Shown here: positions 26,230 through 44,976 of the stretch, piece by piece
Numbering within the stretch: position 1 is the stretch's first letter
How the letters are laid out: every line of letters begins with the position of its first letter
From: Promethearchaeia archaeon
GTDB lineage: Archaea; Asgardarchaeota; Lokiarchaeia; Sigyniarchaeales; SOKP01
DNA length: 64,000 nt
NCBI GenBank assembly: GCA_029856155.1
Contig: JAHQWL010000023.1
Span: 155,757-219,756 of the forward strand
Direction of reading: 5' to 3'
Position numbers and translations under genes: made by a program
The notes under the pieces: model-generated
Databases searched by the model: none
The model's input: the letters and a program-made list of their open reading frames with translations, nothing else
Told to the model about the DNA's origin: nothing

Positions 26230-26934
26230 TTAAATTCCTAAATATACTTGTTTAATTCGAGGTTCTTTTTCTAACTCTTCCTTAGTCCCTCTCATTTCAA
26301 TTTTCCCCTCCTCAAGAACATGAATATATTCAGCGATATTCATCGCTAAAGCCGCATCTTGTTCAACTAATAAAGTAGTAGTGCCTTCTTGTTTTATTTT
26401 CTTAATTGCTTCAAATATAATTGTTTTTATTTTTGGAGCTAAACCTAATGAAGGTTCATCCATTAAAAGAAGTTGAGGATTAGCCATAAGTGAACGCGCA
26501 ATAGCAAGCATCTGTTGTTCACCACCACTTAAAGTTCCAGCTCGCTGATTTTTTCTTTCTCTAAGACGTGGAAAGATCTCAAAAACATTTTTCCTTAATT
26601 TTCGAAATTTACTACGATCTTTCAATACATAAGCCCCCATATCTAAATTTTCAGATACACTCATATCATAAAATAGTTTACGTCGTTCTGGGCAATGAGA
26701 GATCCCTTTTCTAGCAATCTTATGAGCTTTTAACCCATCAATTCTTTCACCACGGAATTCTATTTTTCCTCTATCAGGTTCTTCTAAACCAGATATTACT
26801 CTGAGGAGTGTAGACTTTCCAGCTCCATTGGGTCCAATAACTGCCTCAAGAGATTTCTCTTTTAAGCTCAAATTTATTTCTTCGAGAGCTCTTGCCTTTC
26901 CATAATAATGATATATTTTTTTTAAATCAAGCAT
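26230..26934 (-). CDS. livF: Branched-chain amino acid-type ABC transporter ATPase
   Basis: GPNGAGKST, AGTLSGGEQQMLAIAR, DEPSLGLAP, LLVEQ. Confidence 0.93.
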   Translation of the reverse strand: MLDLKKIYHYYGKARALEEINLSLKEKSLEAVIGPNGAGKSTLLRVISGLEEPDRGKIEFRGERIDGLKAHKIARKGISHCPERRKLFYDMSVSENLDMGAYVLKDRSKFRKLRKNVFEIFPRLRERKNQRAGTLSGGEQQMLAIARSLMANPQLLLMDEPSLGLAPKIKTIIFEAIKKIKQEGTTTLLVEQDAALAMNIAEYIHVLEEGKIEMRGTKEELEKEPRIKQVYLGI

Positions 26935-27667
26935 ATTCGTCACCTTTTCCTAAATAAGCTTCAAGTAAAATTTTATTATTAGCAATCTCTTTTGGAGGAC
27001 CATCAGCAATAAATTTACCTTGATGCATAGCAATTACTCGTGGTACTAATGTCATAAGTTCACGAAGTACATGACCAGTCATAAAAACAGTAACCCCATC
27101 ATCATGTAATTTTTTAATTAATTCAGTTAGTACTGCACTTTCTTCATGAGTAAGTCCGCTAAATGGTTCATCTAATAAAAGCAATTCTGGGTTAGTCCCA
27201 AGAGCTTTACCAATTTGTAATTTTCTTAAATCACCATGAGGTAAAATGATTGGCGGCATTCTAGCTTTATCAACAAGACCTACTGAAGCAAGAATTGAAC
27301 TTGCATATTCTTCAGCACCTACTTTTTTTGAAACTTCTTTTCCTCTTTTTGATAAGCAGGGCACTATTACATTATCAAGTAAGGTTAAGAATTTAAACGA
27401 TCTCACCAATTGAAAAGTTCGAGCAATTCCATAATTCACTATTTTATACGGTCTCATTCCTGTTATATCAATTCCATCGAATCTAATTTTTCCAGAACTA
27501 GGTTTCTCAAATCCACTAATTAAATTAAACACTGTCGTCTTACCAGCTCCGTTTGGACCAATTAGACCCACAAATTCTCCTCGTTTAACCTCAAAACTAA
27601 AATCATTTACAGCAGTTAATCCACCAAACTTTTTTGTAAGGTTTTTCACTTCTAAAATAACTCCCAT
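26927..27667 (-). CDS. livG: Branched-chain amino acid-type ABC transporter ATPase
   Basis: FGGLTAV, GPNGAGKTT, GIARTFQ, LLLDEP, EAYLG. Confidence 0.93.
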   Translation of the reverse strand: MGVILEVKNLTKKFGGLTAVNDFSFEVKRGEFVGLIGPNGAGKTTVFNLISGFEKPSSGKIRFDGIDITGMRPYKIVNYGIARTFQLVRSFKFLTLLDNVIVPCLSKRGKEVSKKVGAEEYASSILASVGLVDKARMPPIILPHGDLRKLQIGKALGTNPELLLLDEPFSGLTHEESAVLTELIKKLHDDGVTVFMTGHVLRELMTLVPRVIAMHQGKFIADGPPKEIANNKILLEAYLGKGDEYA

Positions 27668-27708
27668 TTTTTAACTCCTTAAAAGTAAAATTTTTTTTAT
27701 AATTTTTT

Positions 27709-28749
27709 TTATCGTCCTAATAATACATCCCAAAAATCTTTTAAATGTTCTATTATTGGCCTTAAAATTCCCTGCTCCGAAAATCGAACAACTAATATTA
27801 AAATTATCGCGAAAGTCAAATGTACATAAAGACCAGCACCAACTTCAATAAGAATATATTCAAGAAAAATAAAGAAAAATGCTCCCAAAGCTGATCCTGC
27901 TATAGTTGTTAATCCCCCTAATGATGCCATTAATATAGCAAAAAAAGAAATAGCCGTTCCAAAATTACCAACGGGATTTACAGAAGTATTATAAAATGCA
28001 TAGAAACAACCTGCTATTCCAGCAAATAAGGAACTAACCATAAAGGCATACACTTTGTATCTCGTTGTATTTATTCCTGATGCATCTGCTCCCACCTCAT
28101 CATCGCGAATTGATTTTAAAATAGTCCCAAATTTCGATTTAACAATCTGAAATATTATTATAAAGCATATTATCAAAGTAATAAAAACAATAAAAAATTC
28201 TATTACAGGATTGTTGGATAGTCTCGTTAGAGGATAAGGTCCAGTATTATAAGATATTCCTTCAGAACCAAAAAGAATATCTGAGAGTGACCCTAATAGA
28301 AATAATTTTAATAGGATTAAACTAAAAGCAAGAGTGCCTAATGCTAAATATGGCCCCCTTAATCTTAAACAGGGGATACCAATTATTAAACCAAAGCCTA
28401 CTGCACCCAAAGCTCCAGTAGGAATTGCAAGCCATATTGGAAAACCTTGAAAAGCTATAAGATAAGCACAAAGATAACCTCCTATTCCAAAAAAAATGGC
28501 ATGACCAAAACTAATTTGTCCCGAAATACCAGTAAGAAAATCCCAACTTGCCGCAAAAATTGAAAAAATCATAGCGAGTGTAAAATGACGTAAGAAATAC
28601 TTTATAAAACTCTCATTTTGAGAAAGAAAAGGAAATAATGTAAGTATTATTAATAAAAATATTGTTAATGAACCACTAAAAGTTTTTGCCCATGATTTTA
28701 AATAAGTCGGTATATTTCTTATTTTTTCTTTTACCAATCCTTTTTTCAT
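27709..28749 (-). CDS. livM: Liv-type ABC permease
   Basis: GQISFGHAIFFGIGGY, LRLRGPYLALGTLAF, SIRDDE. Likely start ATG 28749. Confidence 0.9.
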   Translation of the reverse strand: MKKGLVKEKIRNIPTYLKSWAKTFSGSLTIFLLIILTLFPFLSQNESFIKYFLRHFTLAMIFSIFAASWDFLTGISGQISFGHAIFFGIGGYLCAYLIAFQGFPIWLAIPTGALGAVGFGLIIGIPCLRLRGPYLALGTLAFSLILLKLFLLGSLSDILFGSEGISYNTGPYPLTRLSNNPVIEFFIVFITLIICFIIIFQIVKSKFGTILKSIRDDEVGADASGINTTRYKVYAFMVSSLFAGIAGCFYAFYNTSVNPVGNFGTAISFFAILMASLGGLTTIAGSALGAFFFIFLEYILIEVGAGLYVHLTFAIILILVVRFSEQGILRPIIEHLKDFWDVLLGR

Positions 28750-28788
28750 TTTTAACTTCCTCACTATTTATAATCTTAAATTTAAAAA

Positions 28789-29670
28789 TTACTTTAATTC
28801 CTTCTTTCCAAATAATCCTTGGGGTCTTATTATAAGTACTAAAAGAATAACTATGATTGGAACTATATGAGCCCAAGCTGGACCATTAGGGATAAAAAGA
28901 TTGGTAAAAGTAGTTATATACCCCACAATATAAGCTCCTACAATACTTCCAACAAGACTTCCCATCCCTCCTAAAATTACTACAGCAAATGAACTTGTTA
29001 AATATTCCCAGCCCATAGCAGGACCAGTAAGAGCTGCGCCGGGTAAATATAGGGTTGCTGCTATAGCTGCAAGGAATGCAGATATCATAACAGTATAGAA
29101 GAGAACTCTATCGGCATTAATACCCATTAAGGTTGCTGCCTCGCTATCCTGTGAAACTGCACGAATAGATTTACCTAATTTTGATTTATTAATAAATAAA
29201 GCGAATAATGAAACTATAATTAATGAAATAATTATAAAAAAAAGGTATTGATTCAACATGCTATATCCTAAGAAGTCCGTAGTGCCCTCAACCACAACAT
29301 AACCACTAAGTGTTGCAGACGTTGTTCCCGAGATTATTGAAACACATTGCTCGATTCCGAATGCTAACGCAAAAGTAATTAATACAACACCTACAGCTGA
29401 ATCTTTTACAGGTTTGATGAGTAATATATATGTAAGACCGCCTATTATAGTAATAACTACCACTGCAATGATTATATTTATCAATACTTGGCCAGGAAAA
29501 AAACCATATACCCATAAAAGTAAATATCCCGTTAACATGAAATATGCTCCATGCGCTAAATTCATTATATGACCAACTCCATACACTAAAGAGTACCCTA
29601 GAGCAATTAGAGAAAGGTAAGCACCATTTAAAGTACCATTAAATAACATGCTAATAATTTCTTGATACAT
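28789..29670 (-). CDS. livH: Liv-type ABC permease
   Basis: LIALGYSLVYGV, NLAHG, GKSIRAVSQD.EAATLMGI, ILGGMGS, RPQGLFG. Confidence 0.92.
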   Translation of the reverse strand: MYQEIISMLFNGTLNGAYLSLIALGYSLVYGVGHIMNLAHGAYFMLTGYLLLWVYGFFPGQVLINIIIAVVVITIIGGLTYILLIKPVKDSAVGVVLITFALAFGIEQCVSIISGTTSATLSGYVVVEGTTDFLGYSMLNQYLFFIIISLIIVSLFALFINKSKLGKSIRAVSQDSEAATLMGINADRVLFYTVMISAFLAAIAATLYLPGAALTGPAMGWEYLTSSFAVVILGGMGSLVGSIVGAYIVGYITTFTNLFIPNGPAWAHIVPIIVILLVLIIRPQGLFGKKELK

Positions 29671-29892
29671 AATTACAAAAAAGAAAAATTGATTATTATT
29701 AAATTAATTATTATTATTTTTATCTCATTTCTTATAAAACTGATCATTTTCATCCTAACTTACAATTTTATCAAAAAAAAAATATAATATTCAAGATTAA
29801 AGCTATTTTTTGATAAATTATATAAAAAGTTGATAATAATAAAAAAAAATTTTTTAATATTTAAATTTGCTTTAATTCGACTACCATTTCTA

Positions 29893-31332
29893 TTACGACC
29901 ATGCAGTATGAACCCACGGAGCAATTTCATAAGCACCAGTTGCCATCCAATCTGGATAAAGAGGACGTATCGGCATGGCTCCATAAGGAACAACATATGC
30001 ATATCTTGGTGCTGGGATTACTACTTTATCACCATTAGCTCGCCACTGAACCCATAAGGTATGTCCATAAGGATAACCCTCAACTAGGTCATGAGTCTTT
30101 GGCCACCAAGCACCGCCTCCACCAACACCAGCATTGGTATTTCCTTTAGTCCAGGTTTCCATTTCTGGTATCATAAAATTGGGGTTAAATGATTGAGTTG
30201 CATTCATTGCATCAACAAGTGCAAATACGGCGTCGTAAGCTCCAACTGCAATATAAAGTGGTTCATGTCCATCATGATCTGCTAACCACGCATCCCAAAA
30301 CGCAATAGAACTTTCGGTTTTATTAGTCCTATGCAAGGTTTGCATCATTGCCTCGTATGCACAACTCTCACCACTATCTTCGTAAAATGTATCTAACTGC
30401 GATTGAACATCAATACCAAATATCTGATATGTATAATTATATTGAGAGTATTGTTGCATCATTAAAATTCCACCTTGTGCTGAAATGACAGGAATTAAAA
30501 AGTCACATCCATCATCTTCTAGTTCTGATAAGTATCCGTTCATATCTGTGGCACTAAGTGATATATCATATAAGATTGGTGATAGTAATTGTACCCAGCC
30601 ACCTGTAAGAGCTGGCAAATTACCCAATGCAGCTACTAAACTTTCAGTCCAAGTTAAATCTTCTGCAAGAATGCCAACCTGTTTAATGTCATGATTTGGA
30701 TAGGTTGCATTCAATAACATGATATAACCAGCTAATGTAGTTAATATTTCGCCCCCTAATGAAGTTGAGTTAATAGGCATAAATCTGAAAAAATATTTAT
30801 ATCTTGTATAAAAATTTTTCACGTTTGTACAGAATATATCTGTTGCAGCACCAGTATCAATAAAGATAATTTTATTATCCATGAAAACTTCTTGATATGC
30901 TAATAATGCTTCTGATCTAAAGCCACCAAGTGCAAATTGAACTTTTTTATTGTATACAAGTCTTTCTGCCGCAGCAATTCCTCTTGAAGTCACAAGAGCT
31001 GTGTTAGATTCATCTGTATCTTCCTTGGTAACTCCTAGATAATATGTTGTTCCATTAACAACCAAACCACCCGCTTCATTTATGGTTTTAGCTGCATACC
31101 AAGCTCCGTCATAATTTGCATCTCCTTGAATCTCACCAATATCACCAGCGCACCCAATTTTAATTATTTGATCAGATGTTAAACCTGCTGGAGCACCAGG
31201 ACAATCCTTAGAACTCCATGAATATTCACCGGCACCCGGGGCTAAAAGGAAATACCAAGCCCCAACGCCGACACCTACACCTATAACAGCTATGATAACA
31301 ATTGCTAATATTCTTTTTGTTAAAGCTTCCAT
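29893..31332 (-). CDS. Liv-type ABC substrate-binding protein with N-terminal membrane anchor
   Basis: N-terminal TM helix, IKIG, INEAGG, GGFRSE, YFFR, AYDAV. First gene of the liv operon. Confidence 0.85.
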   Translation of the reverse strand: MEALTKRILAIVIIAVIGVGVGVGAWYFLLAPGAGEYSWSSKDCPGAPAGLTSDQIIKIGCAGDIGEIQGDANYDGAWYAAKTINEAGGLVVNGTTYYLGVTKEDTDESNTALVTSRGIAAAERLVYNKKVQFALGGFRSEALLAYQEVFMDNKIIFIDTGAATDIFCTNVKNFYTRYKYFFRFMPINSTSLGGEILTTLAGYIMLLNATYPNHDIKQVGILAEDLTWTESLVAALGNLPALTGGWVQLLSPILYDISLSATDMNGYLSELEDDGCDFLIPVISAQGGILMMQQYSQYNYTYQIFGIDVQSQLDTFYEDSGESCAYEAMMQTLHRTNKTESSIAFWDAWLADHDGHEPLYIAVGAYDAVFALVDAMNATQSFNPNFMIPEMETWTKGNTNAGVGGGGAWWPKTHDLVEGYPYGHTLWVQWRANGDKVVIPAPRYAYVVPYGAMPIRPLYPDWMATGAYEIAPWVHTAWS

Positions 31333-31541: not shown

Positions 31542-34500
31542 TCATAGAAATTGGATAGCAACAATAATTCCAAATAAAATTAGTAGTGAAATCAATATTA
31601 TCAATGTATAGAACCTCCACTTAATTGAAATACTCTCATTTTTCTCCTTGAAAATGATATAAGGCAATAAAATTGCTCCCAAAATCCAAATTGATATCCA
31701 AGTAGTGAATACATACCATTCAGCGGGGATAAAGGTAAACATAATTATAATAGTACTGCCCCAACTGATAACTAAGCGAACCATTCTACGTCTAAACATG
31801 ATGTTAACATCTTCAGTTTTTTCAGAAGGTTTAAGAGAATATATTATACCAAAAATAGGAAATATTAAAATAATAGAATGGTAAGGATTTAATAAACCAA
31901 GAATGGAGTCAGAAAATATGATTCCAATGAATACTGCTAAACATGCACTAATAAGAATCCATATATATTTAAATTGTTTCTTGAAGAAAACGAAAATTCT
32001 AATAAACATATTCTTAATTAAAATTCTGAGATGTGTAAAGAATCTCGTTAAAGCTTCAATGATTTTATTAATAAGCGCTCTTAGTTCTTCTAAAAGGAAA
32101 ATAAAGGGATAAATTAAAACTGTAAAAGCAAAAAATATTCCTGTAATGATAAAAGATAATGATATATGGTATATAATTGAACTTAAGAGCAAAAAGATTA
32201 CAATCCAAAAAATTAAAGCTCCAGCTGAGTGTCCTTTGAATGGTTTTATTTTTATCCCTAAGAATATTACAAAAACTAAAGAAGAGACACTTAAATTTAG
32301 GAAAATATCAAGCACCAATATAAATTGGAACATAAAAAACAAATCAATTGATATTAAACCTCCAATTATGAGAAATGAGTAAGATCTCAAGGATTTTCGG
32401 AAATCTTCCTTTAAAACAGTATCAATTAAAGATAAGAAAAACATAATGAAAAAAGAAGCTAACGCTAAATTAAGAACGTAAAATGGATTTAAAGAAGCAA
32501 AATATAAAGGCCAAGTTATAAAATTAAGATATGTTGATATAATTAAATAAAATTTAATTCTTTCTTTATTGGAAGCAACTAATTTCCAAGATACCGATAA
32601 TTTGAAAAGATAAGCAAATTCAAGGATAAGGATAAAAATAATGAATGGAATCACAGTAGGAGAGAAAGTTAAATAAAAGGTACTATAAAGCCACGTTAAA
32701 TATACTGATGTGAAAATCATAATTAAGAACCATGAAAACACTTTAATGGAGTTAGTAAATTTCCCGATAAATTTCAACAAATAGCTATCTATTAGCATTA
32801 ATACATGTATAACTAAGGAAGAAATAGTTAAATTCAAAAAAATATTGAAATTCGGAATAGAATTCAGCAATAAGAAAGAATCAATAGACAATAATCCTCC
32901 AATTATTAGAATCGAAAATGATCTTAATGATTTTCTGAAATCTTCTTTTAAAATATTATCAATTAAGGTTATCAAAAACATAATGAAAAAAGACGCGAGT
33001 GTTAAGTTAAGGGTGTGTAATAGATTTAAAGAAGCAAAATATAAAGGCCAAGTTATAAAATTGAGATATGATATTAATATCAGTAAAAACCTTATCTTCT
33101 CTTTATTGGAAGCAACAAAACTCCAAAAAGCTAATAATTTCGTAAGATAAGCAAACTCAAGTATTAGGATAATAACGATGATGGGAATAACTGTATAAAA
33201 GAAGGCGACAAAATAGGTACTATACAGCCATATTAAATAGGTTGATGTAAATGTCATAATAGAGACCCAAGAGATTACTTGAATATAATTAACGATTTTT
33301 CCTAAAAATTTAAATAGAAATTTATCTACTATCATTAATCCATGGATTACAAGACTTAAAATCAAAAGAATCAATAGTATTTCGACTCTCTGGAATATTA
33401 AAATTTGAGCTAAGAATATACATATTGTAGAGTAGAACCCTGTTCCAATTAATTGTTGAATAGCCTTTTGATCTTTTTTAAGAGTAACTTGACCTTTTGG
33501 GTATAAATTCTCTAATGACTTAAAGAGAGAATAATTGGTATAAAATTGCATTATTATAAAAATAAAAATTCCTAACCCAAGAAAGAATGGATATTGAGAG
33601 ATATAGTCATATAAGATTAGAAATGTCATCACTGAAATTGTTAAAAAGGTGATCGTATGAATTAAACGAGCATAGCCCTCTTTTATCTTTTTAATTGAAT
33701 AAATATCCAGTGATGTAAAAATCAATAATACAGAAAGAGATACTATAATACTTTCATAAATTCCTATTACTCCGCTTAATAAACCATAAATCATAATGCT
33801 TATTTCACAATAAAATATCAAAAACAAAATTGAATGCATTTTTAGCAGAAAATTTGGATATTTCTGCTCAGCTAATATAAAATTGAAATAATAAACGGAT
33901 ATGAATGAAAGGCATACCTCTATAAAAATGATTAAATTAACTGAGAAAAAGTTTAAAATACCATATAATATGAAGATGTATATTAAATTAATTGCTAACA
34001 ATCCCTGGAATATAATGAAAAGAGAAAATTCGATTCTATTTTTTATATCTTTTTCAATTCTAACGAAGGAAACGCTTAAAAGATATAAAATAAATGATGA
34101 GTTTTGGAATAACAACGAATAGTAGGCAAATCCTATTAACTCTTCGAAGATTAGTATCAATCCATTAGAGATTAAGGATGCTAGATAAAAAGAACTCCAA
34201 ATAAATGAATTATAAATGAGTATTAAACGACCTTTGGTAATCATTTGTTTAGAAATATCTAAGTAAGATAAGAAATAAAGAGAAATAAGTCCTAAAAGTG
34301 AGATTGTTAAAACTAACAGGAAAAAGTTTGAATGATATAAATAGAGGAATAAAGACAAAATATTACTAAAAACAATCCATGACCATAAAGTAAATTTATT
34401 CCGGGATGACGTTAATAATAAAAGTAAGAACTTCCGATCAATAAAGGAGACTTCAATGAATACTAATCCACTTACTACTAGTAATACTATATAAATTGTA

Positions 34501-37500
34501 ATTAGAAGGCTCGAATTAACGAAAACCAAGTAAAGAAAAATATTGATCCATAGAGCTATAGGAATTAAAAGATAGAAAATTGAACTAATTTTGCTGAAAT
34601 AACGTAGGATGTCTTTTATCTTTATATCTAACTCTGATTTTTCTATATATTTCATACAAAACAAAAATAACATTGGCCAGATTATCAGAAAATTACATAT
34701 CTGGTAGACTAATAATATATTAGAAAATATCAAGTACAATAATAAATATGGAATGATTATTGCAAAGAATATGGAAAAAAATATTGAATTAAGAAAGAAG
34801 CAAGTAAGATTAAGCCATTTTACTTGATTTCTATCATGATAAATCTTTAATATGCTATTTTTTATTTCTGCAGTTTCATCTTTTACTGTATTTTTAAATA
34901 AATTTATTATAATTTGAAAAGTAAAAAGGTATATCATTGCCCATGTTAATAGCCAGAAAGGTCTTATTACTTCAAATGTTAGTAGAGCTTCCAAGATAGG
35001 TGTTGTTATAGGAATTGGAATAATAAACCATAGAATATAGCGATATTCAATAAAAATAAAGTATAGGAATATGGTAAACACTGAAGAAAACGTAGAAATT
35101 AAAACACCCGGTGTTGCGTTAAATATAATATAAGTTAAGGATGTGATCGAGGATGATGTTCCAAATGCCACTATTAAAAAAGGAATTATCTTATTAATAG
35201 AAATTCTCATCTTATATTTATTAAATATGAAAAGTGAGCAGCCAAATACAGTTAATGCCAATGAAAAAGCAAAAACAAAAAATCCTGGAAATAAACTGAA
35301 TGTATTGAAGGTAAACCATGAAAGATTAATAACTAGAATCCATGAAAGACACAAATCTATAAATTTTTTTGGAACTTCAACATATTTAGAGGAAAAAAGA
35401 CTGAAACCAATTACAAGAAAACTAATGTTTAATGAAAAAATTGGATTCAATATTATCAAATAAAGAATGAAATAGATTGTAAAGAAAATACCTAATATAG
35501 TGATGAAGTATGCGCTTATTAAAACAACACCAACTGATCTAATATTCGGGAAAAAAGAGTAAACTATTAGAAATAACCCTATTACTAAGATGTCGATTGA
35601 TATAGTCATCTCTAATGAAATTCCAATTGATAATAAATAGAAAAACAGAAATGTAGCGTTTATAAATGTTAGAGGAAATACCCAAAGAATTGAAATAATT
35701 TTCCAGTATTTAAATATTGCTAATAATGGCATCAATAAGACAACTGAAAACATAATAAAAGAAAAATTTCTTAACAGTAGATCTGATACAAATAAATTTA
35801 GGCTAACCCAATAAAGTAAGAATAGACTTTCACCCCACACAACAAAAACTATTGTAGAAAAGTATTTCTTGATTTTACTATACACAACTGGAAAGAAAAA
35901 TAATGAGCAAATTATTATAGATAAAATAAATGATCCACTAGCATCGAATGCTCCAAATCTCAATGAGTTTGTAAAAACATCTATTCCAGTGAGACTTTGA
36001 TAAATTATGAAAAAGTTTACAAATGGTAATATGTTCCAAGCATACCACCCAGATTTCCAAATTGCCAAGGATATCTTCCATTGATAAATTCCAATAGATA
36101 TGTAATATAGAAGAACGCCAATATCGATTGCGAATATTAAAGGGACTAAAGAAAACAGTGGCATAGCTAAAGAGGCAATTATAATAAAATACAAGAAAGT
36201 AGGAAATGAGACTATAATTGAGATTAATACAATGTAAAATGATCTTTTTCTAAATCTTGCTGGTGAACTATTATACAATAGGATAAATCCAAAACCAGTA
36301 ATAGTCTCGGTTATTGTGAAGGTTAAAACAGGATTGTAAGATCCAAAGATCTGATTATTAAATAACCACGAGTATGATAAAAAGCTAACAAGATCAAAAA
36401 TAAATAAAATTACACAAGGTTTAATGAACCATTTATAGCGCTCATCCTTGTGGTGATAAAAGAAAATTCCTATAAATAACAATAATAGGAAAAGTGATAT
36501 TGTTACGTTATAAAGAAGCAGTATGTTAGTAAAATTCATCAATGAAACAAAAGATAAAAGAGAAATAACAGAATATAGATAAAATTTTTCTAAGTTATTA
36601 TTTTTCTTTATATTTAGCAAAATGGAGAAAACTAAGACCCCACATAAAGATAAGAGATAAATAATAATAAAAAAACCTGTTAATGCTATATCAAAGCCTA
36701 TTATAACGTTATAAAAACTTAGAATGACAATAACTTCGAGAAACGCATAATAACTTAGTAAAAAGTATGAAAGAAACCGAAAAAAAGTAATGATACTCCT
36801 CTGAGATAGGATGAGTAAATAAGATATTAATATAAGGAAAATTGAAGACTCTGAGTTAAAATAAAGTAAACTCAAGAATAATAAAAAGGATAAGAAATAA
36901 ATTTTGTAAAGTTCAAAAACAGATTTTACTTCTATTATTTTGTTAAATCTTAAACTATAATAATATAAAAACAATATTAAATTGGCGATGATAGCGCTTA
37001 CATGAATAAAAGGAATAAAGTAAAAGATAGGGATTACAGATATTAAAGAATAAAGAAATTCTATATAAAAACTCAATATAGAAACTATAAATACAAACAG
37101 AGTGATCTTTCTCAATTGTAACTGTTTTTCAGATGAAATAAACCTCAATTTCTCTAATATTAAGAGGCTTAAAGGTGTTAAAAATGTGAAAGTTAATGAA
37201 AACAAAAATATTTTATTAATGATTGAGAAAAGAAATCCGAAAAATTCAATAAATGATATGATCGAAAGACTAATGATTATCTTTACAGTTAACCATGATA
37301 ATAACTTGGAAACAATTTTTGTTTGTGACAGTTGAAATTGTTTATCACATACATTTAGAAATATAATAAAAATAACAAGAAAGAAGCCAATTAAGAATGA
37401 AATGCCTAATAGTGTGGGCCACCAGATAAGAAAAGAAAAAAGCCCTGTTGTAAGTCCTAAAAATGTAAAAACGAATGAGATTGATATTATTATCCCATAG

Positions 37501-40500
37501 AGTCCTAGATCTTGAAAATATTTAATATTTTGATAATCGGGGAGATAATTAGACATCAATTCTACTGTATATATGTTCAAAATAAAGAAAGTTAAGAAAC
37601 AACAAGCTAAAATAAGAGATGTTATTGGGGTAAAAACTAATTCTACAATAAAAATCGATGCTATATAATAAGAGATAAACGGTGTAAATAAAAACCACGA
37701 AATTAACTCTGATAATTTGAATTGTTTAATGTATTTCTCTTTCAATTTAATTTTAACACTTATGACTTCAGAAATCTTTACAAAACTAAAAAATAAGAAT
37801 AAGGTTATAGTAATTATTAGAATTATGTTTGCTCCCAATCCAATTCTCGTTAATTCTAACCCTATAATCGTTGGTAAAGAAATAATCAAACAGGAGAAGA
37901 TAATAAAATTATATATTGTTAATTTTTTAACAAATTCTAAATTGAAATATTCTTGCTTATAAGAATAATAAAAAAGGAAGAACCAAGAAAAGAGTAATGC
38001 AATTATTGGTATGAATATTCCATAAAGTGTATTGATTAATAGGAAAAATGGATAACAGAAGATGGTTGTAATAGAAATAGTAAATAAAACAATAATTTTA
38101 AGTTGATTTAAACTTGAAATGAATTTATCCTTGATCTTAAGCTTTTGTGATAAATTAATTAGAATCAATAAAAAAGCATGGAAGATATATATGGAAAAAT
38201 TTAAAATATTCAAAACAAAAATATTGAAATTAAAAACCATACCTAATAAAAATAAATTCAAACCAATTAGTACTGGAATTGAAGTAAATAATCCTGTAAG
38301 AATTATCGTATTTATAATGATTGCTCTTTTTATATGTTCAATTTTGAAAATTTTAGTTTTATATGAATAATATAAAAGGATATATAGGAAGCAGGAAGTA
38401 AGAATTGAAGGTATGACAATATAATATAAGGTATTGATTAATAAAAAGAAGGGATAAAAGAAGACAGTTGTAATAGAAAAACTAAATAAGATAATAATTC
38501 TGAGTTGATTTAAACTTAAGATGAACTTATCTTTGACACTTAGCTTTTTTGATAAATTTATAAGAATCAGTAAAAAAGCATAGAAGATATATGTGGAGGA
38601 ATTTATAATATTTAATACAAAGATATTAAAATCATAAACTAAACCTAACCAGAATAAATTCAGACCAATTAGCACTGGAATTGAAGTGAATAGCCCTGTT
38701 AGAATTATTGTATTTAAAATAATTGCTCGTTTTATACCTTCAATATTAAAAATTTCATTCTTATATGATAAAAAGAGAGGAATATATAGGAAACATGATG
38801 TAAAAATTAAAGGTAAGATAATGTAATAATATAAAGTGCTAGTTAGTAAGATAAATGGATAATAAAATATTGTTGTGATACCAATACAAAATATTATGAG
38901 TACCTGAAATTTCAGAAATGCTTTTGTTCGTTTTTCCTCGCTAGTGACTTTTTTAAATACTTGGTAATTAATTGCGAAAATTAATAATAAAATATACAAA
39001 GTAAAATTAATCATTGTCATTATTAAGAAAATTAAATCGAAATATAAGCCCAAGAAGAATAATTCCAACCCTGTGATAGTTGGAATTAACGATATTGTGG
39101 TTGATAATAATATACTATTTATTAATATTGATTTAGAGATAAGATTAGGATATAGTTTTTTCTTCCTTAAATATAAAATTGGTATGTAAATAATTATGTT
39201 AGAAACCATGAGAGGAACTATTATAACATAAAGATTATCAAGTGTTAGCAACAAAAAAAAGTAAAATGCTATTGCGGAGGTATATAGCAGAATAAAAGTG
39301 TTTACTTTCAAATAAAGATCTTCAGAAAATATCTCTTTTTTCGAAAATAGATTAATTATTATACAGACTAAAGCTAATGATAAATAAGTTGAATAGATTA
39401 TATTCTCAAATATTGATAGGGTTTGAAAAACACTAAAAAATAAAAAGCTAAATAGAGAAAAAAGTTCGACTGTTAATAAATAAGAGTTGATTTTAACACG
39501 CTTTTTAAATTTGAGTTCATCTATTCTTTCCAATTTTAACCCGAACTTTGATATAAAGTAATAAAGAATAGATGCAATACTACAATCTATAGGTATTATA
39601 ATATAATAAGTAGTTAATAGAGATACTATTAATAGAGATACAAAAAAGTCAACTATAAATATCCAGAGAGTAAAATAGCATAATTTCAAGAAGTATTCTA
39701 AGGAAAACACATGTAAGCTATAATTTATGTAAAGAAAAAATATGAAAAAAATGGGAAATAAAATAGCCGTTATTAATATTCCTTGTAGAAAAGGAAATAT
39801 TTCGAATAAGAAATAGTTTCTAAATAAAACAAGCGTAAAAATAAATAATTCGACTAAAAAGCTATTTATCAAAACTATGATTCTAAATAGTTTCGGGGAT
39901 TTACCGTAAAAATATCTTACTCCTAAAACATATTGGGAAATTAAAAAAATTATTGAAATAATTAACGAGTGTAAGAGAACATTTGAAATGAGAATTAAAA
40001 AAGGTTCTGTTGTATAGGTGGTATATTCAACAATAATTATAGGAAAGAATGTATAAATTAATAAAGTAAAACTAGCAACAGCAAGTAAATTTTGAAACAC
40101 GAGAACATTTTCTTTAGTAAAATATTCCAATTTAACAAATACCTGTAAAACAAAGTATAAAGAAATGCAAAACACCATAAAATTTAATAAAACAGTCTCT
40201 ATTATAGGTGGGATTATTCCAAAAGAGAGATATATCAAAATAGCAATAGAGTTTAATAAAACCACGGATTTATTATACCTTTTTGAACATAGATTATACT
40301 TCTGCTCATAATGAAGAAGTACATAAATGAAAGGAAGAATAATTAAGATTAAGAAGGGAATTTGAATCAAAAAAGAGAATAATGTAATTAATAGAATTAA
40401 TATTACAGATAAATAAGAATTGTACTTTTGATATTTAGAACTTAATAGAGGGGAGAGTTCCTCTGATTCTTCAACTTTTTCAGGCTTATCGTAGAGATCA

Positions 40501-41408
40501 AGTCTTGAACCATAATAATAATCAATATAGAACTTGGATTTAAAAAAGAACAAGATGAATATTACTGTTAAAAAGGAATTATTTATCAGATCTAAACTCG
40601 AATACTGAATTCCTGATAAGCTATATGTAATAATAATACCAAAAGGCATTTGAATTAATAAGACAAAAATTAAGCTAATTATACAAACTACAAAACGTCG
40701 TTTAAAAGATGTTAATTCTTTTAAAATTGGACTTTTTTTAGCTATTGATTCATTGATTCCTTTAATTTGATTTTTAGTCCTTGTTAATGTGATGATGTAA
40801 AAGATTAAGTTGATCGTAAGAGCAAGAAGCCAAGATAGGTTAGTATAAGCAGTAAAAAGTAAAAAGATGATATGGATGATATGATTAATGCCTACAAAGA
40901 AATTGTATGGTTGTTTAATTAATAATTTAAAACTGCCTGCATGTTTGAATTCCCCTTCATTTAAGTTATAAAAATCAATTGGTTGGAAATAATAATAATA
41001 ATAAACAATACTATATAAAGCGGCATAACTAATAACTGGAAGGTGATAAAAGGAATCAAACGGTGAAATAAGTATAAAAATAGGAGTTGAAATGAATGAT
41101 AGGATTGAAATCAGAAAAAGAATATGAATTCTTGCAGTTAGATTATTCTTTTTATTCTGAAAAAATGGATTGTTTCTATATTTATCAAAAGCTTTATAAA
41201 AAAAAAGCAGTGCAAACATAAAACTTACTACTGATAAAGATAATGCAATAAATAAGCCTAACCCAGAAAAATTTAAAATTAAGAAAAAGACAATTCCAAC
41301 TATTAGGGGAGCAATAACTAAAAAGAATGAAAACCACCAGAATTTCTGAAGTACTTCTGTAGCTTTCCTAATCCGTTCTTGCGAGTTGTTACTATTTTCT
41401 ACTGTCAT
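31542..41408 (-). CDS. Giant (3288 aa) polytopic membrane protein of unknown function with internal repeats
   Basis: 9.9-kb uninterrupted ORF in very AT-rich DNA. Almost continuous hydrophobic helices with short K/E loops, and in-frame internal duplications. Confidence 0.85.
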   Translation of the reverse strand: MTVENSNNSQERIRKATEVLQKFWWFSFFLVIAPLIVGIVFFLILNFSGLGLFIALSLSVVSFMFALLFFYKAFDKYRNNPFFQNKKNNLTARIHILFLISILSFISTPIFILISPFDSFYHLPVISYAALYSIVYYYYYFQPIDFYNLNEGEFKHAGSFKLLIKQPYNFFVGINHIIHIIFLLFTAYTNLSWLLALTINLIFYIITLTRTKNQIKGINESIAKKSPILKELTSFKRRFVVCIISLIFVLLIQMPFGIIITYSLSGIQYSSLDLINNSFLTVIFILFFFKSKFYIDYYYGSRLDLYDKPEKVEESEELSPLLSSKYQKYNSYLSVILILLITLFSFLIQIPFLILIILPFIYVLLHYEQKYNLCSKRYNKSVVLLNSIAILIYLSFGIIPPIIETVLLNFMVFCISLYFVLQVFVKLEYFTKENVLVFQNLLAVASFTLLIYTFFPIIIVEYTTYTTEPFLILISNVLLHSLIISIIFLISQYVLGVRYFYGKSPKLFRIIVLINSFLVELFIFTLVLFRNYFLFEIFPFLQGILITAILFPIFFIFFLYINYSLHVFSLEYFLKLCYFTLWIFIVDFFVSLLIVSLLTTYYIIIPIDCSIASILYYFISKFGLKLERIDELKFKKRVKINSYLLTVELFSLFSFLFFSVFQTLSIFENIIYSTYLSLALVCIIINLFSKKEIFSEDLYLKVNTFILLYTSAIAFYFFLLLTLDNLYVIIVPLMVSNIIIYIPILYLRKKKLYPNLISKSILINSILLSTTISLIPTITGLELFFLGLYFDLIFLIMTMINFTLYILLLIFAINYQVFKKVTSEEKRTKAFLKFQVLIIFCIGITTIFYYPFILLTSTLYYYIILPLIFTSCFLYIPLFLSYKNEIFNIEGIKRAIILNTIILTGLFTSIPVLIGLNLFWLGLVYDFNIFVLNIINSSTYIFYAFLLILINLSKKLSVKDKFILSLNQLRIIILFSFSITTVFFYPFFLLINTLYYIVIPSILTSCFLYILLYYSYKTKIFKIEHIKRAIIINTIILTGLFTSIPVLIGLNLFLLGMVFNFNIFVLNILNFSIYIFHAFLLILINLSQKLKIKDKFISSLNQLKIIVLFTISITTIFCYPFFLLINTLYGIFIPIIALLFSWFFLFYYSYKQEYFNLEFVKKLTIYNFIIFSCLIISLPTIIGLELTRIGLGANIILIITITLFLFFSFVKISEVISVKIKLKEKYIKQFKLSELISWFLFTPFISYYIASIFIVELVFTPITSLILACCFLTFFILNIYTVELMSNYLPDYQNIKYFQDLGLYGIIISISFVFTFLGLTTGLFSFLIWWPTLLGISFLIGFFLVIFIIFLNVCDKQFQLSQTKIVSKLLSWLTVKIIISLSIISFIEFFGFLFSIINKIFLFSLTFTFLTPLSLLILEKLRFISSEKQLQLRKITLFVFIVSILSFYIEFLYSLISVIPIFYFIPFIHVSAIIANLILFLYYYSLRFNKIIEVKSVFELYKIYFLSFLLFLSLLYFNSESSIFLILISYLLILSQRSIITFFRFLSYFLLSYYAFLEVIVILSFYNVIIGFDIALTGFFIIIYLLSLCGVLVFSILLNIKKNNNLEKFYLYSVISLLSFVSLMNFTNILLLYNVTISLFLLLLFIGIFFYHHKDERYKWFIKPCVILFIFDLVSFLSYSWLFNNQIFGSYNPVLTFTITETITGFGFILLYNSSPARFRKRSFYIVLISIIVSFPTFLYFIIIASLAMPLFSLVPLIFAIDIGVLLYYISIGIYQWKISLAIWKSGWYAWNILPFVNFFIIYQSLTGIDVFTNSLRFGAFDASGSFILSIIICSLFFFPVVYSKIKKYFSTIVFVVWGESLFLLYWVSLNLFVSDLLLRNFSFIMFSVVLLMPLLAIFKYWKIISILWVFPLTFINATFLFFYLLSIGISLEMTISIDILVIGLFLIVYSFFPNIRSVGVVLISAYFITILGIFFTIYFILYLIILNPIFSLNISFLVIGFSLFSSKYVEVPKKFIDLCLSWILVINLSWFTFNTFSLFPGFFVFAFSLALTVFGCSLFIFNKYKMRISINKIIPFLIVAFGTSSSITSLTYIIFNATPGVLISTFSSVFTIFLYFIFIEYRYILWFIIPIPITTPILEALLTFEVIRPFWLLTWAMIYLFTFQIIINLFKNTVKDETAEIKNSILKIYHDRNQVKWLNLTCFFLNSIFFSIFFAIIIPYLLLYLIFSNILLVYQICNFLIIWPMLFLFCMKYIEKSELDIKIKDILRYFSKISSIFYLLIPIALWINIFLYLVFVNSSLLITIYIVLLVVSGLVFIEVSFIDRKFLLLLLTSSRNKFTLWSWIVFSNILSLFLYLYHSNFFLLVLTISLLGLISLYFLSYLDISKQMITKGRLILIYNSFIWSSFYLASLISNGLILIFEELIGFAYYSLLFQNSSFILYLLSVSFVRIEKDIKNRIEFSLFIIFQGLLAINLIYIFILYGILNFFSVNLIIFIEVCLSFISVYYFNFILAEQKYPNFLLKMHSILFLIFYCEISIMIYGLLSGVIGIYESIIVSLSVLLIFTSLDIYSIKKIKEGYARLIHTITFLTISVMTFLILYDYISQYPFFLGLGIFIFIIMQFYTNYSLFKSLENLYPKGQVTLKKDQKAIQQLIGTGFYSTICIFLAQILIFQRVEILLILLILSLVIHGLMIVDKFLFKFLGKIVNYIQVISWVSIMTFTSTYLIWLYSTYFVAFFYTVIPIIVIILILEFAYLTKLLAFWSFVASNKEKIRFLLILISYLNFITWPLYFASLNLLHTLNLTLASFFIMFLITLIDNILKEDFRKSLRSFSILIIGGLLSIDSFLLLNSIPNFNIFLNLTISSLVIHVLMLIDSYLLKFIGKFTNSIKVFSWFLIMIFTSVYLTWLYSTFYLTFSPTVIPFIIFILILEFAYLFKLSVSWKLVASNKERIKFYLIISTYLNFITWPLYFASLNPFYVLNLALASFFIMFFLSLIDTVLKEDFRKSLRSYSFLIIGGLISIDLFFMFQFILVLDIFLNLSVSSLVFVIFLGIKIKPFKGHSAGALIFWIVIFLLLSSIIYHISLSFIITGIFFAFTVLIYPFIFLLEELRALINKIIEALTRFFTHLRILIKNMFIRIFVFFKKQFKYIWILISACLAVFIGIIFSDSILGLLNPYHSIILIFPIFGIIYSLKPSEKTEDVNIMFRRRMVRLVISWGSTIIIMFTFIPAEWYVFTTWISIWILGAILLPYIIFKEKNESISIKWRFYTLIILISLLILFGIIVAIQFL
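32330..33360 (-). repeat. 537-bp (179-aa) direct duplication within the giant membrane protein
   Basis: aaagaagcaaaatataaaggccaagttataaaatt at 32491 and 33028. YLNFITWPLYFASLN and LKEDFRKSLRS each occur twice. Confidence 0.9.
38010..38830 (-). repeat. 402-bp (134-aa, about 4 TM) tandem duplication within the giant membrane protein
   Basis: IKRAII.NTIILTGLFTSIPVLIGLNLF occurs twice (nt 38299 vs 38701), with more diverged copies on either side. Confidence 0.9.
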
Positions 41409-41699
41409 CGCCCAACATAATTATAGTTATATCGTGAGTTTAATAAAAATATTAATTTATAAATATAATAGGTTATATTTACTAATGTATTAAGCTCATT
41501 TAAAAGGTTTTATCATACGCATTGGTAAGTTTTAAAAAATGGTTGCAGAATTAGTATTTTAGTGGTAAAAATTTATAAATTATATATGAATCTCTTGTTT
41601 TAAAAATAATTGGAAAAAAGAAAAAGCTCAAAGCTTTCTAATGATTTAGAAAATTCAATAATAACTTTTAATTTAGTTTAATAGGGAAAAATTCATTGA

Positions 41700-43022
41700 T
41701 TATTTGAAGTTCGGTAAAAAGCCTTTTTGTATTTCACTCATCTCATCAAAGATGTTTTCTGCCATTTCAAAACTTCCCACATTCGGATCGATGGCTAAAC
41801 ATGCGATCGCAATATCCTTAGATTTATTAAGAACTGCTTCAATGCACAAATCCTGAATTGTGGCTTCTATACGAAGTATTGCTGCAATATTTCTTGGTAA
41901 TGATCCTATTTTCACACCATGAACACCATTTTTATTGACTGTAGCTGAACATTCTAAGATTAAATCTTGTGGCAAATTATCAACTAAATTATTGTTAGGA
42001 ATATTCACAGCAGTTTCATATGAATTTGTATCATTAATTATTGCTTCAATTATTGGCACAGCTCTTTCTCCTGAGGGTGCTGTAGATAACATTCCTTTTT
42101 TCGGATATTTACCTCTTTTAAGTCTTTTATGCTTATTCAGATATCTTCTATACCGAAATTGCCCTTCTTTATCTATGAAATTTATCCAATCTATCATATC
42201 CTGAGTTTCAGTAAATTCTTCGCCAAACTGGAGGTATTCTCCTAGATGATTATCCCCTACATAAGGAAAATATCCAAATTTCTTAAAAACTTCAAATGTA
42301 AGTGTTGAGAACTCAAATCTTTCTTCATTTTCGGTAAAATAGCTCAAGGCATTACCCTTAAAAAAAGGAATTAAATCGTTCCCTGTAGATAAATCCTCTA
42401 AACCTAATAAAAATGCAAAATGATTAAGCCCCGCAGCTTTCATTTTTAACTCATTAATGGGCTTATTAAATAATTTAGGTAAATGCCTTATCATAAACCC
42501 TATTTGATGGCATAAACCAACGAATTTCATTCTTTTTACACTTCTTTTAATTGCCAAGCAAACACGAGACATTGGATTTGAAAAATTAATCAAAAACGCA
42601 TTAGGACAAATCTTTTCAGCATCCTTGACTATCTCTACAATTGGGGGAATTATTCTCCATGCATGAAAAGTACCACCCGGTCCCCCACATTCCCCTAAAA
42701 TCTGTGTTGAACCATGTTTTCTTGGTATCTCATAATCTTGGCGCCATAATTTCATTCGATCTCCAACTTCTATTGAATTGATTATGAAATCAGCACCTTT
42801 TAAAGCTTTAGACCGATCAGTTGTCCGTTCAAGACTAAATTTATTATTATGCTTTTCATTTTCAGCTATTAAAAGTTCATAAATAATTTCTAACTTTTCT
42901 TTATTAATATCGTTAAGAACAATTGTTGAGCCTTCTAAAACATCACTTAAATAAATATCATTAAACATAGGAGGCCCAAATGAAGTTGAGCCCGCTCCAA
43001 TTAAAACAATCTTTTTATTCAT
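41700..43022 (-). CDS. Glycoside hydrolase family 4 (NAD+/Mn-dependent alpha-galactosidase/glucosidase, MelA-like)
   Basis: KIVLIGAGSTSF, ALKGADF, GECGGPGG, NFSNP, GLCH, GLNHF. Confidence 0.92.
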   Translation of the reverse strand: MNKKIVLIGAGSTSFGPPMFNDIYLSDVLEGSTIVLNDINKEKLEIIYELLIAENEKHNNKFSLERTTDRSKALKGADFIINSIEVGDRMKLWRQDYEIPRKHGSTQILGECGGPGGTFHAWRIIPPIVEIVKDAEKICPNAFLINFSNPMSRVCLAIKRSVKRMKFVGLCHQIGFMIRHLPKLFNKPINELKMKAAGLNHFAFLLGLEDLSTGNDLIPFFKGNALSYFTENEERFEFSTLTFEVFKKFGYFPYVGDNHLGEYLQFGEEFTETQDMIDWINFIDKEGQFRYRRYLNKHKRLKRGKYPKKGMLSTAPSGERAVPIIEAIINDTNSYETAVNIPNNNLVDNLPQDLILECSATVNKNGVHGVKIGSLPRNIAAILRIEATIQDLCIEAVLNKSKDIAIACLAIDPNVGSFEMAENIFDEMSEIQKGFLPNFK

Positions 43023-43428
43023 CTTTCTCAAAAACCATATTGTTAGTAGACAACCTATTATTTTGATTAAACGTATGATCTATTTAATAGATTTTTATAG
43101 ATTACAATAATCTGATAAATGGGTTTTTTCACAATAATCTAACAAATGGGAATAGAATGGGAAGATTTATAAGGTGATCCTAACTTAATTTAAATAATGA
43201 GTTTTTCACAATATACTATGGATTATTGGTATGGGATACATACTATAGTATTTCCTTTAATCCGTAGTATTAAGAGAGAATAAATCAAAACTCTTGACCT
43301 TTTTCATATAATTTTTTTTGATTTGTTCTCTTTTAACATTACATCTCATTGAATCTTATTTGAAATAGGTCAATATCAGATTTAACTCTCCCAGTGAAAG
43401 ATTCAAATAAAAAAGGAGGTGAAAAAAC

Positions 43429-43656: not shown

Positions 43657-44847
43657 TTAATTTATAATTTTTGTAATTCTTTCTATTGCTTCTAAGATTC
43701 GTTCTTTGGATTGAGTTAAAGCAAATCTAACAAATCCTTCTCCATATTGACCAAAACCTATTCCTGGTGTAATTACCACCCCAATATTAATTAATTTTTT
43801 TACAAATTCCATACATCCGATATCTCTATACTTTTCAGGAACTTGCGTCCAGACATAAAATGTTGCCTGGGGTTTGTTTGTTTTCCAGCCAATATCATTC
43901 AATCCTTTAATAAGGAGATCTCTGCGTTTTTCATATATTTCAACTGTATTTTGTACAATGTCTGGTTTTTTATTTGAATGATATTCATCTAATCCTTTAC
44001 ATACCGCTCTCTGTATAAACTTTGGGCAACCAGAATCAATTTGAGATTTAACATTTCTTAATCCTTTAATAATATCTCTATTACCAGCAACCCAACCACA
44101 TCTGAATCCTGTCATATTAAACATTTTAGATGCACTATTAATCTCAACATGATTCTGATCTATTTGTAATACCGATGGAGCAATGTAATCCCCAAAAGTA
44201 AACTCTGAATAAGGATTATCATAAACAATAAAAAAATTATAATCTTCTGCGTAATCTACTGCTTTTTTTAAGAATTCCTTCGGAGCAATTGCACCAGTAG
44301 GGTTATTTGGGTAATTTAAATACATCAATTTAGCTTTTTTAAGAATTTTTTTATCAATTGCATCTAAATCTGGCAAAAACTGATTCTCTCTTAACAAAGG
44401 CATTGAAAATGGTTCTGCATCACACAATTTTGTTGCTCCATTTTCGTAAACTGGATATCCCGGATTTGGACAAAGAACAATATCTCCCGGATTTATAAAT
44501 GCCCTTGCAATATTGGCAACGCCTTCTTTTCCTCCAATCACATTAGAAATTTCGTCCTTTGGATCCAAATCCACATTAAACCTAACCTTATACCATCGCG
44601 CTACCGCTTCCCTAAAATCTTCTTCGCCCATACTCGCGGGATAATTATGATTCTTAGGGATTTTTACTTGTCTTATTAATTCATTAATGATTATTTCAGG
44701 AGTAGATAAATCAGGATCTCCAATACCAAGAGGAATTAAATCTTTACCTTCCTTTCTTTTTTCTGATAATAATTGTTCAATTTCTACAAAAATATATTTT
44801 GGGAGTCTTTTTACTCTCTCAGAAAATTCTAATTTAATGTAAAACAC
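43657..44847 (-). CDS. dapL: PLP-dependent class I aminotransferase, LL-diaminopimelate aminotransferase-like
   Basis: LGIGDPDL, GGKEG, PNPGYPVY, LNYPNNPTGA, DNPYSE, SASKMFNMTGFRCG, GEGFVRFAL. Start uncertain (GTG 44847 or ATT 44838). Confidence 0.8.
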   Translation of the reverse strand: MFYIKLEFSERVKRLPKYIFVEIEQLLSEKRKEGKDLIPLGIGDPDLSTPEIIINELIRQVKIPKNHNYPASMGEEDFREAVARWYKVRFNVDLDPKDEISNVIGGKEGVANIARAFINPGDIVLCPNPGYPVYENGATKLCDAEPFSMPLLRENQFLPDLDAIDKKILKKAKLMYLNYPNNPTGAIAPKEFLKKAVDYAEDYNFFIVYDNPYSEFTFGDYIAPSVLQIDQNHVEINSASKMFNMTGFRCGWVAGNRDIIKGLRNVKSQIDSGCPKFIQRAVCKGLDEYHSNKKPDIVQNTVEIYEKRRDLLIKGLNDIGWKTNKPQATFYVWTQVPEKYRDIGCMEFVKKLINIGVVITPGIGFGQYGEGFVRFALTQSKERILEAIERITKIIN

Positions 44848-44976
44848 CCTACTTTTAAAAATAGATTTAGAATATGTGAAATAAATCATTATAAAATGTT
44901 AAAAATTTTTCGAAAAAACTGTATAAAACAATTCAATAAGTAAAAGGAATAAAAAAAAGAAAAAATTAAGAGTCTA

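Follow-up and report, generated by a model that had tools for sequence, protein, structure and literature searches.

In this study, a 64,000-nucleotide stretch of DNA from a Promethearchaeia archaeon (GenBank assembly GCA_029856155.1, contig JAHQWL010000023.1, positions 155,757 to 219,756, hereafter referred to as the window) was analyzed with regard to a single very large gene. This gene occupies positions 31542..41408 on the minus strand and encodes a membrane protein of 3,288 amino acids (P0001). The evidence leaves little doubt that it is a real protein with roughly 100 transmembrane helices and that it belongs to a new family. The chain consists of helical hairpins, about 50 in number; its N-terminus lies inside the cell, with tight turns on the outer side and basic loops in the cytoplasm. 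Moreover, the protein is modular, and its modules have been split off or duplicated in the course of evolution.

The number of helices was obtained in two ways. Dynamic programming on Kyte-Doolittle hydropathy, with helices of 17-25 residues, returned 99-106 segments at thresholds of 0.5-1.5 and 76-78 segments at a very strict threshold. In addition, AlphaFold2 models were made with family alignments for two stretches that together covered 1,811 residues. The model of residues 1-1200 (pLDDT 79.1, pTM 0.45) contained approximately 35 helices, where the parse gave 33-34, and the model of residues 1590-2200 (pLDDT 78.9, pTM 0.65) contained approximately 20 long helices, where the parse gave 20. 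Extrapolation from these 55 helices per 1,811 residues yielded about 100 helices for the whole chain, a total that is reliable to about +/-5. A preliminary description of this DNA had estimated 90-100 helices by eye, and both the parse and the models agreed with that estimate instead of lowering it substantially.

The topology followed from the distribution of lysine and arginine over the loops of the parse. The even-numbered loops held 173 of these residues and the odd-numbered loops 42, in near-perfect alternation along the entire chain. The odd loops were mostly 3-7 residues long and free of lysine and arginine, whereas the even loops were mostly 15-25 residues long with 3-6 basic residues each. 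The few phase slips coincided with helices missed by the parse, namely residues 123-141 and a split of 335-358, both visible in the AlphaFold2 model, and residues 2711-2728, visible in the sister repeat. Since basic loops lie on the cytoplasmic side of the membrane according to the positive-inside rule, the alternation assigns the longer loops to that side, together with the N-terminus, and the loop analysis left almost no residues exposed outside the cell. Inside the predicted helices, just 4 lysine or arginine residues were found, but 25 aspartate or glutamate residues. In two distant homologues, P0059 and P0060, a CxxC...CxxC zinc ribbon is inserted at residues 154/155 within a loop rich in lysine and arginine, which fits the cytoplasmic placement of such loops. 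This ribbon (CSKCG...CPNCG) is about 55 residues long, lies at residues ~155-210 after helix 4 in members of one subclade and corresponds to positions ~40945-40947 of the window; it is the sole recognizable soluble element anywhere in the family.

The gene itself is one uninterrupted open reading frame (ORF) with an ATG start, 3,288 codons and a stop codon, as read from the ORF list and its translation, and it is single-copy within its 4.1-Mb genome. The product has a mass of 386 kDa, a pI of 9.3 and a GRAVY of +1.16. Leucine, isoleucine and phenylalanine account for 46% of its residues, hydrophobic 17-mers cover 92.5% of the chain, and no non-hydrophobic stretch exceeds 28 residues, the longest being residues 299-326. 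The view of a single giant ORF that is almost wholly intramembrane and devoid of a soluble domain was thus confirmed by composition, hydropathy and the length of the longest polar stretch. An AT-rich intergenic region of 290 bp lies upstream (41409..41699, minus strand), and its sequence suggests that it may contain a promoter of the gene's own.

The GC content of the gene is 25%, compared with about 31% in the flanks. However, its GC content at third codon positions (GC3) is 0.234, a value within the range of the neighboring genes (0.15-0.25), so the low GC content resides in codon positions 1 and 2 and reflects the amino-acid composition. A foreign origin was ruled out on this basis, and the gene is native. 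Comparison with three orthologues (dS 0.33-0.74) gave an overall dN/dS of 0.17-0.21 and values of 0.10-0.28 in every segment, the repeats included, while the neighboring enzymes gave 0.08-0.27. As judged from these substitution ratios, the gene is under purifying selection. These data also bear on the possibility that the gene is a non-functional or selfishly expanding hydrophobic ORF, that is, an artefact of annotation or a gene driven by its repeats. Such an origin would be in keeping with the low complexity of the composition, the recent tandem duplications and the patchy presence within the family; nevertheless, dN/dS remains about 0.2 in every segment, more than 100 genomes keep a frame of 2,400-4,900 codons open at identities as low as approximately 30%, 147 alignment columns are conserved to at least 88%, and GC3 is that of a native gene. 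A 9.9-kb open frame in DNA of 25% GC, maintained in more than 100 genomes with dN/dS of about 0.2, led us to dismiss a chance ORF, and this explanation, already disfavored, is considered extremely improbable.

Searches against known families and folds placed the protein outside all of those compared. When the whole protein and five overlapping pieces were compared with Pfam-A (at E <= 1) and NCBIfam, no Pfam match and nothing above noise was obtained; the noise-level rows of the family scans were TraX (E 0.011), Fst toxin, CcmI and the complex I 21-kDa subunit. The preliminary description had noticed no enzymatic motif, in line with the absence of any Pfam match and of any meaningful NCBIfam match. 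A profile of the conserved core had no matches at E <= 10 among the PDB sequences, and an HMMER profile run against 1.84 billion representative proteins returned 54 matches, all of which were members or fragments of the family itself. Foldseek against the PDB gave no row at E <= 0.001 for either AlphaFold2 model. A wide VIA-align search of 48,161 chains gave best Z scores of 9.2-9.4 over 85-163 aligned residues, which is within the noise stated for helical models. Among the best fold rows were small complex I/Mrp subunits, rhodopsins, a translocon component and the ESX protein EccD (Z 7-9.4 over 70-163 residues); as a whole, the top rows were generic helical hairpins. Moreover, no description of the family or of its locus tags was found in full-text searches of the literature. 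The family therefore lies outside every family and fold compared and is undescribed in the libraries and literature searched, and the match to a known family that could have explained the protein away did not appear in Pfam, NCBIfam, the PDB, the 1.84-billion-protein search, Foldseek or VIA-align.

The homologues proved to be numerous and taxonomically confined. Sixty full- or near-full-length homologues of 1,895-3,754 residues share 31-87% identity with the window's protein; all are annotated as hypothetical and carry no Pfam domain. A six-frame profile search with the conserved core was conducted in 400 genomes of the phylum. It matched 116 of the 153 genomes of the window's own order (family f1, 101 of 134; f2, 1 of 1; f3, 12 of 14; f4, 2 of 4) and gave no real match in the other 247 genomes of the phylum. 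Two weak matches outside the order, in G325 and G360 (E 1e-5 and 2e-4), were to 301-residue EamA/DMT-like proteins and were rejected as composition noise (hhalign probability 3.6%). The concern that a protein of this kind might have no homologues was thereby removed. The features that set the family apart were found in combination: a Trp-rich core within a near-wholly hydrophobic protein of more than 2,000 residues, an N-terminal module (N-module), either fused or encoded by an upstream ORF, and a C-terminal module. Several records with unexpected labels also bear the gene. Contig L044 (DATKTW010000160.1), labelled "Candidatus Nanopelagicaceae bacterium", holds a Lokiarchaeial giant gene, and many JBHL* contigs of metagenome-assembled genomes (MAGs), such as L007, L021, L031 and L035, belong to MAGs labelled Thor-, Odin-, Hermod-, Hod- or Heimdallarchaeota and hold close copies. 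Given that the GTDB-based scan confined the matches to one order, these records are probably mis-binned or mislabelled.

Homologues are also present in cultured organisms and closed genomes, which fall in family f3. Promethearchaeum syntrophicum MK-D1 encodes DSAG12_00898 (QEE15075.1; 3,940 residues), Candidatus Lokiarchaeum ossiferum encodes NEF87_002906 (UYP46621.1; 3,146 residues) together with a paralogue of 4,908 residues, and Candidatus Harpocratesius repetitus encodes MCF2139232.1 (4,296 residues). The two L. ossiferum genes lie on the plus strand at L083:2779-17505 (4,908 residues) and L084:3327-12767 (3,146 residues), and the exact sequence of the longer paralogue was absent from the protein collection searched. 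Like the window's protein, these homologues are giant, contain 39-44% leucine, isoleucine and phenylalanine, lack a Pfam domain and are annotated as hypothetical proteins. Their Trp-rich core is about 30% identical to that of the window's protein (E 1e-32 to 1e-37). The C-terminal module is likewise present in one or more of them, certainly in the 4,908-residue paralogue. In contrast, BLAST similarity is nil outside the core and the C-terminus, the cultured homologues are 650-1,600 residues longer (NEF87_002906 excepted), and they have no neighboring genes in common with the window locus.

The modular construction is most evident at the two ends of the chain, in its repeats and in its core, all of which are encoded on the minus strand. 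The N-module (residues 1-310; 40479..41408) has eight helices in the AlphaFold2 model. It contains the best-conserved cytoplasmic motif at residues ~70-93, a small beta-hairpin loop at residues 146-155 and the invariant residues D75, R78, N89, P124, P143 and K290, and its dN/dS is 0.10-0.13. In 17 retrieved loci of one subclade, the N-module is a separate ORF of 310-321 residues immediately upstream of the giant gene, with 51% identity to the giant N-terminus (E 1e-88). In these split loci, whose upstream ORF is about 313 residues long, the remaining gene encodes about 2,540-2,720 residues and starts at the equivalent of residue ~320. About 45 clusters of such stand-alone modules were found in the database search, for example HWN80_01535 beside HWN80_01540. 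The break between the N-module and the remainder falls in an acidic hydrophilic linker (residues 295-328; 40425..40526), a natural split point that includes the longest non-hydrophobic stretch and in which the pLDDT of the AlphaFold2 model drops below 50 at residues 313-319.

Detectable internal repetition extends over residues ~295-1272 (37593..40526), where old and recent copies of a unit of about 134 residues follow one another. Comparison of the whole chain with itself by BLASTP gave the diagonal only, and the repeats were found after the chain had been cut into pieces. The four recent tandem units, each of four helices, comprise residues 690-822, 824-957, 959-1091 and 1093-1221 (37734..39341). 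They are up to 68% identical to one another and are matched by a unit HMM at E 1e-49 to 1e-58, and orthologues have 2, 3 or 4 of them. About three older copies precede them, back to residue ~295. Profile self-comparison with hhalign scored 160-300 in this region against a best of 54 for a reversed-profile control; elsewhere, the remaining off-diagonal self-similarity (58-76) was marginal relative to that control, so repeats can be demonstrated over only about one third of the protein. Construction from four-helix units, the feature for which Piezo was cited in the preliminary description, holds for the four units at residues 690-1225 and for the older copies back to residue ~295, whereas the remaining two thirds stay near the control. 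A second, longer unit of 179 residues with about six helices has been duplicated in tandem (residues 2676-2854 and 2855-3033; 32310..33383), as was also detected by BLAST of the pieces. The two copies are 65% identical to each other and are confined to the five closest relatives, and occupancy of the family alignment is 8% at residues 2801-2950. Because each duplicated unit contributes an even number of helices, its duplication leaves the topology unchanged. Through such changes in the copy number of whole units, members of the family range from approximately 2,400 to 4,900 residues.

The most conserved part of the chain is a core of about 20 helices (residues ~1600-2170; 34899..36611), which has a dN/dS of 0.11-0.15 and many invariant tryptophan, proline, glycine, asparagine and serine positions, and which AlphaFold2 modelled as a fairly confident compact bundle. 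Within the core lies a Trp-rich, lysine-bearing and near-invariant motif (residues 1775-1798; 36015..36086) of the form Y-x-W-x-x-S-W-x-I-W-x-x-G-W-x-x-W-x-x-x-P-x-x-N, in which S1780, W1784, G1787, P1795 and N1798 are invariant or nearly so. The motif, which is the portion of the core modelled with the lowest confidence, is probably an interfacial segment. The C-terminal region (residues 3055-3288; 31545..32246) is conserved as well, with a long basic amphipathic helix at residues ~3107-3148 and conserved positions at E3107, W3216, G3244, E3255 and K3263-F3266, and BLAST still aligned it to the 4,908-residue L. ossiferum paralogue and to P0096. Among the 147 columns conserved to at least 88% in the family, 60 are phenylalanine, tyrosine or tryptophan and 23 are proline or glycine, and only 13 are charged.

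With respect to function, we infer that the protein is neither an enzyme nor a standard transporter. We tentatively favor the reading, though with less than an even chance of its being correct, that it is a modular intramembrane scaffold that organizes or mechanically modifies a patch of membrane. According to this reading, the N-module, the repeated four-helix units, the compact Trp-rich core and the C-terminal module would form a string of helix bundles that, if packed like ordinary helical membrane proteins, would occupy an estimated 100 nm2 of bilayer. Its basic cytoplasmic face would be offered to lipids or partner proteins, and the string would organize or mechanically alter the surrounding membrane. 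The length would evolve by gain and loss of whole units with even numbers of helices, which would keep the topology intact. This reading was reached largely by exclusion and from the tolerance to gain and loss of units. A scaffold was preferred over a machine because the searches made gave no family or fold match, the conserved columns are mostly aromatic, proline or glycine with few charged residues, the length varies by whole units, the N-module can be a separate polypeptide, and almost nothing is exposed outside the cell. The higher pTM of the core model relative to that of residues 1-1200 would also be consistent with separate bundles on a string.

Several observations weigh against a scaffold. 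Several genomes of the same family that are 92-99% complete lack the gene, from which it follows that it is dispensable and not essential. The 25 acidic residues within the helices and the conserved asparagine, serine, glutamine and glutamate residues of the core could instead line a path for transport or lipids. Furthermore, in Supplementary Table 3 of Imachi et al. 2020 (PMC7015854), the MK-D1 homologue DSAG12_00898 has an RPKM (reads per kilobase per million mapped reads) of 152, its locus tag being confirmed by the flanking flotillin, amidohydrolase, JAB and TtcA genes. This value is third from the bottom among about 116 consecutive genes and, read literally, would speak against the protein being a bulk structural component. 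However, the table is very flat (RPKM 109-375 over those genes; SecY has 345 and ribosomal protein L21e 375), which makes any expression claim for a single gene drawn from it weak. An RPKM of 152 is accordingly a weak sign of transcription, in a homologue about 30% identical over the core. With regard to proteomics, the published supplements that were searched had no entries on the giant homologues, and the L. ossiferum proteome has been deposited as PRIDE PXD074767 (PMC13716822).

The preliminary description compared the protein with Piezo, the largest well-studied polytopic case, in which Piezo1 and Piezo2 have 38 transmembrane helices per subunit and nine four-helix units per blade. The two are alike in being very large polytopic proteins built partly of tandem four-helix units. 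They differ in that the giant protein has approximately 2.6 times more helices, is demonstrably repetitive over one third of its length only, has no detected pore module, cap or large extracellular loops, and belongs to an archaeal family restricted to one order. No Piezo model was matched by the whole protein or its five pieces in the Pfam-A search at E <= 1, which agrees with the original remark that sequence homology to Piezo was not seen. Piezo was also absent from the top 50 rows of the four fold searches (Foldseek against the PDB and VIA-align wide, with both models), although weak matches can be hidden in searches with long helical-repeat models. The likeness to Piezo is architectural only.

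A mechanosensor or curvature generator of the Piezo kind, in which a solenoid of four-helix units curves the membrane or responds to tension in it, possibly within the protrusions of Asgard archaea, was weighed on these grounds. The four recent and about three older tandem units speak for it, as do the top Foldseek rows for residues 1-1200, which, although non-significant, were alpha-solenoid and designed repeat proteins, and the occurrence of the family in the order to which both cultured Lokiarchaeia with protrusions belong. On the other hand, neither a Piezo match nor a pore module was detected, and about two thirds of the chain are not demonstrably repetitive. Cultured Hodarchaeales make similar protrusions (bioRxiv 10.1101/2025.02.26.640444), yet the family was found in the Loki order only; Hodarchaeales were not confirmed by name among the scanned genomes, and the 1.84-billion-protein search also returned no member outside the order. 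Taken with the fact that several members of the same family lack the gene despite near-complete genomes, this weakens the proposed relevance to protrusions. A Piezo-like role is distinctly unlikely.

Another explanation is a composite transporter or channel, in which many transporter-like bundles are fused or one large conduit carries ions, solutes or lipids. The polytopic nature of the protein, the 25 acidic residues within predicted helices, the conserved polar residues of the core (N1798, N1871, S1780, Q2165, E1607 and R1720) and the compact bundle of about 20 helices modelled with a pTM of 0.65 would all be compatible with transport. In addition, the gene adjoins a Liv-type ABC importer in the window's genus. 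However, no family model of the known transporter superfamilies in Pfam-A or NCBIfam (MFS, DMT, RND, ABC permeases, complex I/Mrp antiporter-like proteins and others) was matched, and the fold searches gave only generic hairpins, with Z scores no higher than 9.4 and, where the rmsd was acceptable, no more than about 160 residues aligned. The two weak DMT/EamA-like matches outside the order were spurious, the ABC neighborhood is not retained in other genera or in the cultured species, and free gain and loss of units would be unusual for a transporter. We therefore regard a transport function as improbable.

The importer in question follows the giant gene directly on its downstream side (26230-31332, minus strand). 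It is a Liv-type ABC importer for branched-chain amino acids and is complete, with two BPD_transp_2 permeases and two ATPases besides the substrate-binding protein (29893-31332). Some 35 related loci retain the order of the giant gene and the importer, whereas other genera do not. The other immediate neighbors are a GH4 glycosidase, an aminotransferase, an MFS transporter and a HEAT-repeat protein. The GH4 gene (41700-43031) and the class I/II aminotransferase gene (43657-44889) lie upstream, both on the minus strand, and the order aminotransferase, GH4, N-module where separate, giant gene is kept across family f1 in 46-48 retrieved loci, distant members included. The 474-residue protein encoded at 24795-26219 (minus strand) consists almost wholly of HEAT/PBS-lyase-type repeats (HEAT_2, E 2e-64). 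The downstream genes vary between genera, and the locus in cultured species shares no neighbors with that of the window. Since the neighbors are unrelated housekeeping genes and the downstream side varies, synteny was set aside as a clue and nothing was inferred from it on function. In MK-D1, a flotillin/SPFH (Band 7) gene (L085:1207-2442, plus strand) lies directly upstream of the giant gene in the same orientation. A link to flotillin was rejected, for this adjacency occurs in MK-D1 only and was found neither in L. ossiferum and Harpocratesius nor in the window's family.

A dense array of helices without enzymatic residues has a described counterpart in Arc3A (DUF2339) of P. aeruginosa, which has 35 predicted transmembrane segments and no residues indicating enzymatic activity (PMC8926400). 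Arc3A protects against a phospholipase toxin, by protection of membrane lipids rather than by transport; its homologues vary in the number of transmembrane segments, and its authors tied helix density to the mechanism (eLife 2022, PMC8926400). By analogy, the giant protein may handle lipids or protect against membrane damage in a non-enzymatic way, its densely packed helices shielding lipids such as lyso-lipids or blocking toxins that attack lipids. The exceptionally dense array, the lack of catalytic residues and the variable helix number hold for both proteins, a likeness that does not amount to evidence of homology. Grooves that bind lipids could be formed by the conserved aromatic, asparagine and serine positions of the core. 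The differences are considerable. Arc3A is bacterial with 35 helices, whereas the Lokiarchaeial protein is three times larger with about 100, and PF10101 matched neither the protein (hmmscan at E <= 1) nor the genome in a six-frame search in which control genomes were positive. Ester-cleaving phospholipases A are not known to act on archaeal ether lipids, which was also counted against this explanation. No Arc3B-like gene was found among the neighbors of the giant gene, while Arc3B is itself absent from many bacteria that bear Arc3A (PMC8926400). A functional link between the two proteins would be pure analogy, and the Arc3A-like explanation is, in our judgment, quite improbable.

In conclusion, a more far-reaching reading can be put forward. 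It is conceivable, although unlikely, that the protein founds a class of membrane proteins not seen before, that is, a single chain of about 100 transmembrane helices with a new solenoid- or raft-like intramembrane fold that lengthens by units and gives the Lokiarchaeales a membrane domain built of protein. Should this be true, such a domain could, for instance, make a patch of membrane stiff or curved, act as a barrier to diffusion or serve the actin cytoskeleton as a platform for docking. About 100 helices in one chain would be, to our knowledge, the most of any known protein (Piezo having 38). If the count holds, the family has about 2.6 times as many membrane-spanning helices per chain as Piezo and essentially no soluble part or recognizable fold, which raises the questions of how insertion and folding of so long a chain are achieved and of what benefit a membrane patch of 100 nm2 made of protein brings to the cell. 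The split and fused N-modules and the tandem units of four and six helices offer a natural system for the growth of polytopic proteins. Finally, the first Asgard archaea brought into culture belong to the one order to which the family is restricted, and homologues occur in strains amenable to cultivation, cryo-ET and proteomics, which makes the proposed roles directly testable.

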